IMG/VR virus record: IMGVR_UViG_2526164619_000005
Location: 1-12,767 of that record
DNA length: 12,767 bases
Source: a virus
Taxonomy: Duplodnaviria; Heunggongvirae; Uroviricota; Caudoviricetes
Reading direction: 5' to 3' (one strand)
The translations under genes and the position numbers were made by a program. The notes under the pieces are model-generated. The model did no database searches. It was not told where the DNA came from and saw only the letters and a program-made list of their open reading frames with translations. Position 1 is the stretch's first letter. Each line of letters opens with the position of its first letter. Below are positions 10,782 to 11,519 of the stretch, piece after piece.

Positions 10782-10974
10782 GAATCCTCCCGGCCGGGAT
10801 AATATTGTGAGTAAAATGAGGAGCGGGCTGAAGTCCGGAAGTTACAGGACAATGGCAGAAGAGAGACGACAGCCCGCAATTCGAAAAAGACCGCGCAGTT
10901 GCGCAGAGTGATTACTATGGGGTATTATTCGCCAGCTGAAATATTACTTCACGTTTTATTGTTTATTCCTTGCC

Positions 10975-11033
10975 GCCCGCGTCTCCCAGCGCGGGCTTTT
11001 TTTGCCCACAAGAAAGCCCCTCCGGAGAGGGGC
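10975..11033. terminator. Back-to-back hairpins forming a possible bidirectional terminator in the tRNA-to-nanS spacer
   Basis: 10975-10996 GCCCGCGTCTCCCAGCGCGGGC followed by seven T (plus-strand sense). 11016-11033 GCCCCTCCGGAGAGGGGC, which on the minus strand is followed by UUUCUUGU. Confidence 0.45.
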
Positions 11034-11230
11034 TGGAGAGTGGCGCTATGTGCCATTGCATGGTGCCGGGTGCCTCCCGGTGAATTCAGTACCAGCACCT
11101 GAATCCGCGATTATCCCATATACCTACTCGCTGATTGCCCCTCCGCACAGGGGGATTCACCATGCCAGTTTCTTTTAACAAACTCCCCGCAAACCAGACA
11201 ACAGTCAACCGTCTGAATTGTGAGACATTT

Positions 11231-11255
11231 AAAAAAAGGCCCGCAAAAGCGAGCC
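11231..11255 (-). terminator. Hairpin plus U-tract just downstream of the tRNA-Arg(UCU) gene (minus strand)
   Basis: Minus-strand RNA: GGCUCGC-UUUU-GCGGGCC (one G-U pair) followed by UUUUUUU. Confidence 0.5.
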
Positions 11256-11269
11256 AGGGAAAATAAGTG

Positions 11270-11346
11270 TGGCGCGTTGTACTGGATTCGAACCAGTGAC
11301 CGATTGCTTAGAAGGCAATTGCTCTGTCCGGCTGAGCTAACAACGC
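11270..11346 (-). tRNA. argO: tRNA-Arg, anticodon UCU
   Basis: Folded by hand: acceptor GCGTTGT/ACAACGC, D-arm GCTC/GAGC, anticodon stem ATTGC/GCAAT with loop CTTCTAA, T-arm ACTGG/CCAGT with loop TTCGAAT, discriminator G plus CCA. Symbol is by analogy to Stx phages. Confidence 0.85.
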
Positions 11347-11359
11347 ATGATGCAGATAA

Positions 11360-11436
11360 TGGACCGCCATCGGGGACTTGAACCCCGCGCAGCCAGCTTC
11401 GAAGGCTGGCGCTCTTTCCTGATGAGCTAATGGCGG
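11360..11436 (-). tRNA. argN: tRNA-Arg, anticodon UCG
   Basis: Folded by hand: acceptor CCGCCAT/ATGGCGG, D-arm GCTC/GAGC, anticodon stem CCAGC/GCTGG with loop CTTCGAA, T-arm CGGGG/CCCCG with loop TTCAAGT, then TCCA. The 5' end and discriminator are uncertain by one nucleotide. Confidence 0.8.
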
Positions 11437-11443
11437 TATGTGA

Positions 11444-11519
11444 TGGTGGCCCTTGCTGGATTTGAACCAGCGACCTGGCGATTATGAGTCGCTCGCTCTC
11501 ACCACTGAGCTAAAGGGCC
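11444..11519 (-). tRNA. ileZ: tRNA with anticodon CAU, most similar to tRNA-Ile2 (lysidine type; ileX/ileZ-like) rather than tRNA-Met
   Basis: Folded by hand: acceptor GGCCCTT/AAGGGCC, D-arm GCTC/GAGC, anticodon loop CTCATAA, T-arm GCTGG/CCAGC with loop TTCAAAT, ACCA end. Very close to E. coli ileX as recalled. Confidence 0.8.

Follow-up and report, generated by a model that had tools for sequence, protein, structure and literature searches.

The window analysed here is the entire 12,767-bp contig AKMY01000008.1 of assembly GCA_000268165.1 (IMG/VR record IMGVR_UViG_2526164619_000005), which is Shigella flexneri K-315 in the strain table of PMC6397287. It is a decayed late region, riddled with insertion sequences (IS), of a lambdoid prophage of this strain, and it carries three tRNA genes followed by a nanS-p-type esterase gene, the arrangement within which Shiga toxin (Stx)-converting phages hold stxAB. 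In the window, the site of stx is an ordinary, already described empty configuration of a known cargo (moron) slot, located at 11228-11231. The empty state was probably inherited as an approximately 0.8-kb module of the type present in the Escherichia coli O157 Sakai prophage Sp4 and phage Nil3, which recombined between flanks of the type found in Stx2 phages, a TerB-bearing prophage and phage phi296. None of the complete E. coli genomes contained the whole window (best coverage 62%), which agrees with a Shigella origin.

The moron insertion site was described by Tree et al. 2014 (PMC4104026), together with the convergent small RNAs that lie 3' of stx2B in Sp5 (EcOnc27 and EcOnc02, the latter now AsxR); the same convergent organisation was reported for Sp3, Sp4, Sp9, Sp10, Sp11, Sp15 and Sp17 (PMC4104026). 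In the window, the tRNA trio, the spacer and the esterase gene are all located on the minus strand, and the gene order is valid on that strand alone. It begins with a partial IS1, a methyltransferase pseudogene, the three tRNA genes, a 488-bp spacer and the esterase gene, and continues with IS600, the genes for DUF826, holin, DUF1327, lysozyme and Rz, and IS110-family and IS66-family elements.

The flanks of stx2AB are contiguous in the window

In the Stx2 phages 933W/Sp5, Stx2_95 and Lyz12581Vzw, the order is (methylase)-ileZ-argN-argO-terminator on one side of the cargo and STnc100-nanS-p-lysis genes on the other, as in the window. A first-pass annotation of the window, which gave no strand, had cited a layout of tRNA trio, stx and nanS-p for Stx phages, and this layout is real in 933W, Stx2_95 and Lyz12581Vzw. 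Compared with the window, the Stx2a phages have an identical ileZ, a methylase of 94% identity and a nanS-p of 93-96% identity; the 5' half of STnc100 is only 52-77% identical, and stx2AB is present at the slot.

By blastn against Stx2_95, Lyz12581Vzw and 933W, window positions 11600-11232 match the left flank of the toxin genes (the end of the methylase, the tRNA trio and the pre-stx terminator hairpin), and the match resumes at 11227, running to 10702, with a right flank that begins 41 nt past the stx2B stop codon. The break points 11232 and 11227 apply to all three Stx2 phages as well as to the TerB prophage. In the Stx2 phages, the slot is filled by 1335 bp comprising the stx2 promoter, stx2A and stx2B; the window aligns with both flanks, and stx2AB is the sole item missing from it. 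The anchors TTTTGCGGGC and CACAATTCAG are 1347 nt apart in the Stx2 phages and 16 nt apart in the window, where they enclose CTTTTTTTAAATGTCT. Neither stxA nor stxB lies between the argO terminator and STnc100/nanS-p. The first-pass annotation delimited the spacer exactly (10782-11269, 488 bp) and was right that no stx is present; its placement of the missing genes in the spacer as a whole did not hold, because the flanks are contiguous at 11232/11227 and stx would therefore occupy a single point, 11228-11231. The remaining approximately 445 bp of the spacer correspond to the ordinary intergenic region between stxB and nanS-p.

The same annotation had proposed a search for toxin fragments and Fur-box remnants, which came out negative. 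In the whole window, tblastn with word size 2 and E <=100 revealed no remnants of the Stx1A/B or Stx2A/B proteins (best E 0.4-0.8, at the level of noise), and blastn-short with the stx1 and stx2 cassettes gave only chance matches of <=16 nt, none of them meaningful in the spacer. The best spacer match to the 19-nt Fur-box consensus was 10/19, which is below the mean of shuffled spacers and is equalled by 99% of the shuffles.

Other contents are found between the same anchors. In E. coli CP55_Sichuan they are filled by TerB-family and DUF3927 genes (769 nt), a cargo flanked by T-runs (GGGCCTTTTTT[...]TTTTAAATGTCT), and in the stx-negative phage vB_EcoP_phi296 they are separated by 45 nt. The cargo boundaries agree within 3 nt, which implies that exchange at the slot takes place at a defined position, after the tRNA unit has terminated and before the next transcription unit, that of the small RNAs, begins. 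Both CP55_Sichuan and phi296 share the tRNA trio, STnc100, an EcOnc08-type module and nanS-p with the window, and CP55_Sichuan also shares the methylase. In the Stx1 phage 75/02 of Shigella, no tRNA trio is present upstream of stx1 (ARAGORN, phage sequence 1-8066). The right side of this phage is arranged as in the window, with STnc100, then AgvB (not the EcOnc08 type) and then nanS-p, and its right anchor, AAATGTTAAATACATCTCAATTCAG, is similar to the phi296 one.

The empty junction is widespread

In the window, the argO terminator leads directly to TAAATGTCTCACAATTCAG and STnc100. The join consists of C, seven to eight Ts and AAATGTCT (16-17 nt), and it is found in O157 strain FRIK944, Sakai Sp4 and phage Nil3; the junctions of the window and of O157:H7 FRIK944 are nucleotide-identical, and the Nil3 junction departs from them by a single T. 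Alignment of the spacer to the regions flanking stx, as the first-pass annotation had suggested, shows it to be continuous with both flanks of stx2AB and to represent the Sp4-type empty allele.

In Sakai Sp4, ileZ1-argN1-argO1 are followed by a 489-bp spacer and ECs_1088, and FRIK944 carries the same allele. Sp4 and the window have in common the tRNA trio, the terminator, the empty junction, the pair STnc100/EcOnc05 and EcOnc08, and the esterase start codon, with 96.8% identity over 824 nt (one gap) and 99% over the first 128 nt to the right of the slot. On the other hand, the gene upstream of the trio encodes an AraC/helix-turn-helix regulator in Sp4 and a methylase in the window; the body of the Sp4 esterase, a full-length copy of 616 amino acids, is only approximately 72% identical to that of the window at the nucleotide level and 71% at the amino acid level; and the window locus, unlike Sp4, is cut by IS600 and IS1. 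The record of Nil3 (AM051322), a partial one from a bovine O157:H7 isolate, contains Q, tR', the tRNA trio and the same empty junction of 17 nt. It is 95.6% identical to the window over 774 nt and 99.2% over a 247-nt junction query, retains only a remnant of the methylase and stops before nanS-p.

The 247-nt junction query was covered by at least 80% in one place in about a fifth of the complete E. coli genomes (1074 of 5426). Pieces more than approximately 620 nt apart were not joined in this search, so that such coverage is impossible with stx in between. The query was also covered in 10 phage records. The anchored junction pattern was found in at least 119 IMG/VR contigs, nearly all of which have the same join and vary in the length of the T-run alone. 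Modules could be scored in the 101 contigs with enough downstream sequence: among the matches listed, STnc100 is present in all 101, an EcOnc08-type module in 73, AsxR or AgvB in 12 and a similar nanS-p start in 60. In species-representative genomes, the pattern appeared in two metagenome-assembled genomes (Butyricicoccus and Bryobacteraceae), whose gap sequences are unrelated; these are chance matches.

Mosaic structure and origin of the empty state

Sliding-window identity divides the locus into three parts. Positions 11600-11541 and the methylase sequence upstream are of the Stx2_95/TerB type (94% to Stx2_95), a type absent from Sp4. The slot core, from about 11300 to 10701, is of the Sp4 type (97-100%), and in the first part to the right of the slot, positions 11240-11061 are 52-77% identical to the Stx2 and TerB alleles, and positions 11227-11100 are 99% identical to Sp4 compared to approximately 80% for the Stx2 phages. 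The nanS-p body (10580-9650) is again of the Stx-phage type (93-100%, compared to 52-82% for Sp4). The break points are near 11540 and 10700, and the approximately 0.8 kb between them contains the tRNA trio, the empty slot, both small-RNA genes and the portion of nanS-p that encodes the N-terminal DUF1737. Positions 10700-10580, the linker from DUF1737 to SASA, are not matched well by any compared locus.

Based on this structure, we infer that recombination rather than deletion produced the present combination. The slot, a well-known one that follows the late promoter, is empty here: the tRNA unit directly abuts the small-RNA unit (convergent STnc100/EcOnc05 and EcOnc08-type genes), followed by nanS-p, with nothing inserted. 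In the proposed mechanism, the cargo state would travel with the core of approximately 0.8 kb, and the core would be exchanged by homologous recombination, with the tRNA trio and nanS-p serving as arms. In the window, a core of the Sp4/Nil3 type would thus have been joined to outer modules (methylase and nanS-p body) of the Stx2/TerB/phi296-phage type. No toxigenic ancestor is implied, since the outer modules also occur with the TerB cargo and with the 45-nt filler.

Several observations weigh against this interpretation. The contig carries neither Q nor pR', because the IS1 cut (12417) and the contig end (12767, inside IS1) intervene, and the expression of the tRNAs and small RNAs in K-315 is presumptive. 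In addition, the methylase (94%) and the nanS-p body (96%) are closest to those of the Stx2a phage Stx2_95, so the backbone could descend from a cargo-bearing phage, and the Stx2 and TerB cargoes share a left end of approximately 11 nt (RTATCYGCGCC) that is missing from the empty allele, as could be the case if the empty form had arisen secondarily by deletion. These similarities of the outer flanks and this missing motif, together with the break points near 11540 and 10700 and the T-runs that bracket the TerB cargo, would also fit an ancestor of the backbone that had once carried stx2 or another cargo and had lost it by a swap of its core for an empty Sp4-type core or by an ancient deletion between T-runs. 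Such an older loss is improbable, though it deserves to be taken seriously: the same methylase and nanS-p types accompany non-stx states (TerB in CP55_Sichuan, 45 nt in phi296), no stx remnant is present in the window, and the direction of the exchange is unreadable from these data.

Far less credible is a recent in-place deletion of stxAB from a resident Stx prophage in this Shigella lineage. It would account for a layout that equals that of an Stx2 phage minus stx, in a prophage that is visibly decaying (IS1, IS600, IS110-family and IS66-family elements). However, the junction is nucleotide-identical to an allele widespread in O157:H7 and many other genomes, more than 1000 genomes share the junction, neither a scar nor stx remnants are present, and both sides of the junction belong to the widespread empty haplotype (the 99% and approximately 80% identities over 11227-11100 given above), which is a strong argument against deletion in place in this lineage. 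Moreover, PMC4609726, the one source consulted on this point, presents the loss of stx as that of the entire phage. The first-pass annotation had offered a choice between an stx-negative relative and a phage that lost its toxin; the former is supported by the 97-100% identity of the junction and its surroundings to Sp4 and Nil3, and an in-place loss is not supported by the scarless, shared junction. Least probable of all, to the point of being negligible, is a collapsed or misjoined draft assembly that hides a cargo: the contig is indeed short and ends inside IS elements, but there is no repeat at the junction, and every base of the join lines up with the closed genomes of Sakai (Sp4) and FRIK944 and with phage Nil3.

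Two convergent small-RNA genes occupy the spacer

The spacer had been thought to contain only hairpin structures. Instead, two small-RNA genes are present, a full-length STnc100 gene and a second one that converges on it from the plus strand. The STnc100-family RNA (RF02076) is located at 11004-11194 on the minus strand and scores 139.4 bits in Rfam against a threshold of 47, with the complete model aligned (1-206 of 206). It is the homologue of EcOnc05 in Sp4 and EcOnc27 in Sp5, and Rfam also places a member of the family directly after the cargo of 933W, Stx2_95, phi296, the TerB prophage and the Shigella Stx1 phage 75/02; according to PMC12370729, the distance from stx2 to STnc100 downstream is 75 nt. 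The homologues EcOnc05 (approximately 222 nt) and EcOnc27 (approximately 235/247 nt) are associated with Hfq in O157 Sakai (Tree 2014 Table S2, PMC4104026).

The STnc100 transcript may start near 11227. The published sizes of the sense RNAs (approximately 222 nt in Sp4; approximately 235/247 nt in Sp5) would make the 5' end coincide almost exactly with the right-hand limit of the cargo (11227; approximately 3245 in the 933W sequence). If these approximate sizes hold, the cargo would sit precisely between two transcription units.

The plus-strand gene, an EcOnc08 homologue, is located at 10899-11003, with a predicted promoter, start and terminator. Its promoter consists of the -35 element TTGCGC (10899-10904), 18 nt and the -10 element TATTAT (10923-10928), with a predicted start at G10935; the predicted RNA has a body of approximately 69 nt (about 10935-11003) and ends in a strong terminator (10975-10996) with a tail of seven Us. 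In 933W, the AsxR promoter has the same -35 element and spacing, whereas the RNA body and terminator are unrelated. The anti-small RNAs AsxR and AgvB occupy the same position as the EcOnc08-type gene, convergent with STnc100 and with the same promoter geometry; the partner of STnc100 is AsxR in 933W, AgvB in phage 75/02 and an EcOnc08-type RNA in the window. AsxR and AgvB have a conserved 3' region of approximately 42 nt. In the spacer, neither AsxR nor AgvB (RF02703, RF02702) was matched in Rfam at E <=10, while the positive controls were recovered (933W AsxR, 88 bits; phage 75/02 AgvB, 57 bits). A match to OmrA-B in the spacer (25 bits against a threshold of 40) was rejected as terminator-driven. 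On the minus strand, positions 10885-10906 form a small hairpin (CTGCGC-AACT-GCGCGG) that has a sense-strand T-run and whose complement provides the -35 element of the antisense promoter.

The Hfq peaks mapped in Sakai Sp4 by cross-linking and analysis of cDNA (CRAC; Tree 2014, Table S2) were carried to the window through the 96.8%-identical alignment, presuming that the coordinates of the paper are those of NC_002695.2 in the Sp4 region. The EcOnc05 peak falls at 11133-11025, inside STnc100; the EcOnc08 peak falls at 10929-11001, on the predicted plus-strand RNA; and the EcOnc21 peak falls at 10838-10923. The peaks fit independently predicted features exactly, which suggests that the two coordinate systems agree. 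The northern size reported for EcOnc08/21 is approximately 271 nt, which points to an alternative to the 69-nt RNA, namely a longer antisense transcript from within the 5' end of nanS-p. The sequence of the plus-strand RNA was not found by a literal search of literature texts and two supplements, and its link to EcOnc08 is made through coordinates.

By analogy with these homologues, STnc100/EcOnc05 and EcOnc08 would be Hfq-bound regulators. The body of the plus-strand RNA is almost invariant across 14 variants, and its module is the commonest partner of STnc100 at the empty-slot viral loci (the 73 of 101 among the matches listed); it also occurs beside stx2 in Stx2_95 and beside the TerB cargo. 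It is conceivable, if somewhat doubtful, that the EcOnc08-type gene functions as a third class of allele at the AsxR/AgvB position, with targets of its own. This RNA has no Rfam family.

Six small open reading frames (ORFs) of the spacer were compared with Pfam and PHROGs, and a single match was obtained: the ORF at 11135-11266 on the plus strand (43 amino acids) matches profile positions 1-34 of 59 of phrog_27294, a family of unknown function. This ORF is antisense to the 5' end of STnc100 and spans the empty junction, and a similar ORF in FRIK944 is a partial pseudogene in RefSeq. It overlaps both the small RNA and the junction and was set aside as a gene, probably being an over-annotation.

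The tRNA unit

The tRNA identities given in the first-pass annotation agree with both ARAGORN and Rfam, and the three genes score 58-72 bits in Rfam, where the threshold is 29. In the order ileZ(CAU)-argN(UCG)-argO(UCU), with a terminator after argO, the unit has the form seen in Stx phages: tRNA-Ile2 (CAU) of the ileZ type is located at 11444-11519 and is identical to ileZ of 933W (76/76), tRNA-Arg (UCG) of the argN type at 11360-11436 has four mismatches to argN of 933W, and tRNA-Arg (UCU) of the argO type at 11270-11346 has one mismatch to argO of 933W, all on the minus strand. At argO position 37 (window 11309, 3' of the anticodon), the window and Stx2_95 have A, and 933W and Lyz12581Vzw have G.

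The first of these tRNAs has the CAU anticodon on an isoleucine-type body, as in tRNA-Ile2, whose lysidine-modified form reads AUA. ARAGORN labels this CAT tRNA 'Met', which is a naming convention and is expected for a tRNA-Ile2 gene; the annotation of 933W ileZ states that it reads AUA, and RefSeq names the E. coli homologues tRNA-Ile. The acceptor stem, as read directly from the sequence, contains the pairs C4-G69 and C5-G68, which we take to be recognition elements for TilS.

A promoter-like site (TTGAAG, 17 nt, TATTAT) is located at 11529-11557 on the minus strand, 10-38 nt upstream of ileZ, where 933W has its putative tRNA promoter pT; it was assigned from its match to the consensus and its position. 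At the other end of the unit, an intrinsic terminator is located at 11231-11255 on the minus strand. It consists of GGCTCGC-TTTT-GCGGGCC and a run of seven Ts, its predicted fold has -13.8 kcal/mol (z-score -4.1), and its counterpart in 933W is annotated as 'terminator upstream of the stx genes'. The three tRNA genes are structurally intact, with the pT-like promoter and the strong terminator alongside. Judging from their homologues, the tRNAs would supply readers for AUA, AGA/AGG and CGN codons.

The truncated esterase gene and the outer parts of the contig

The nanS-p-like esterase gene that the first-pass annotation placed after the trio is located at 9393-10781 on the minus strand and encodes a nanS-p-type sialate O-acetylesterase of 462 amino acids, with Pfam DUF1737 at residues 3-50 and SASA at residues 66-261. 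It is 76% identical to L0105 of 933W, aligned to residues 1-478 of 645, and its catalytic region is nearly identical to that of L0105. The complete C-terminal domain of NanS-p proteins (approximately 616-645 amino acids in total) is absent, with approximately 167 C-terminal residues missing. This truncation, which had gone unmentioned, is due to a complete IS600 (1264 bp) at 8148-9411 on the plus strand, from which the last five or so codons and the stop codon of the esterase are derived. The terminal repeats of IS600 (TGAGGTAGCCTGAG... and ...CCAGTACACCTCA) were read directly, and IS3-family transposase domains are present; the transposase frame is split into several ORFs. IS600 has taken the place of the last part of nanS-p and of the genes that usually come next, with the DUF1378 region that is typical of the interval between nanS-p and the DUF826 gene. 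If active without its C-terminal domain, the esterase would, like its homologues, remove 9-O-acetyl groups from sialic acids. As in Stx phages, the (truncated) nanS-p is followed on the minus strand by a lysis cassette, DUF826-holin-DUF1327-lysozyme-Rz. The presence of nanS-p is not confined to Stx phages, since the gene is also found in non-Stx prophages (PMC10462455).

Upstream of the tRNA trio, an N6/N4 DNA methyltransferase pseudogene is located at 11560-12416 on the minus strand, with Pfam N6_N4_Mtase on two overlapping ORFs and the N-terminus missing. Its frameshift results from a 10-bp tandem duplication at about 12035-12054 on the minus strand (TGCCAGTCAG twice), and apart from this 10-nt insertion it is 94% identical to the methylase of Stx2_95. 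The homology ends at 12416, where a partial IS1 (12417-12767) has removed the 5' part of the gene; the terminal repeat of IS1, GGTAATGCTGCCAACTTACTGATTTAGTG from 12417, was read directly, and the element reaches the contig end. At the opposite end of the contig, a sub-threshold Rfam match to AfaR at 223-323 on the minus strand (38.6 bits against a threshold of 100) adjoins IS66-family sequence and is probably due to chance or to the IS element.

Implications

The results presented above imply that the combination of this tRNA trio with nanS-p does not by itself indicate an Stx phage or a lost toxin, as the empty configuration is the one commonly found in prophages of E. coli and Shigella. For the stretch from argO to nanS-p, the appropriate annotation is a small-RNA locus (STnc100/EcOnc05 and EcOnc08) rather than vacant DNA or hypothetical ORFs. 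On a weaker reading, the trio and nanS-p, which are intact homology arms with 93-100% identity to Stx phages, could let this remnant gain stx from a superinfecting phage by recombination. In general, the mosaic break points illustrate how the state of the slot is exchanged among lambdoid phages with a cassette of approximately 0.8 kb, which bears on the movement of stx; cassette exchange at this slot is already the accepted picture, and the importance of the present case beyond good annotation is small.

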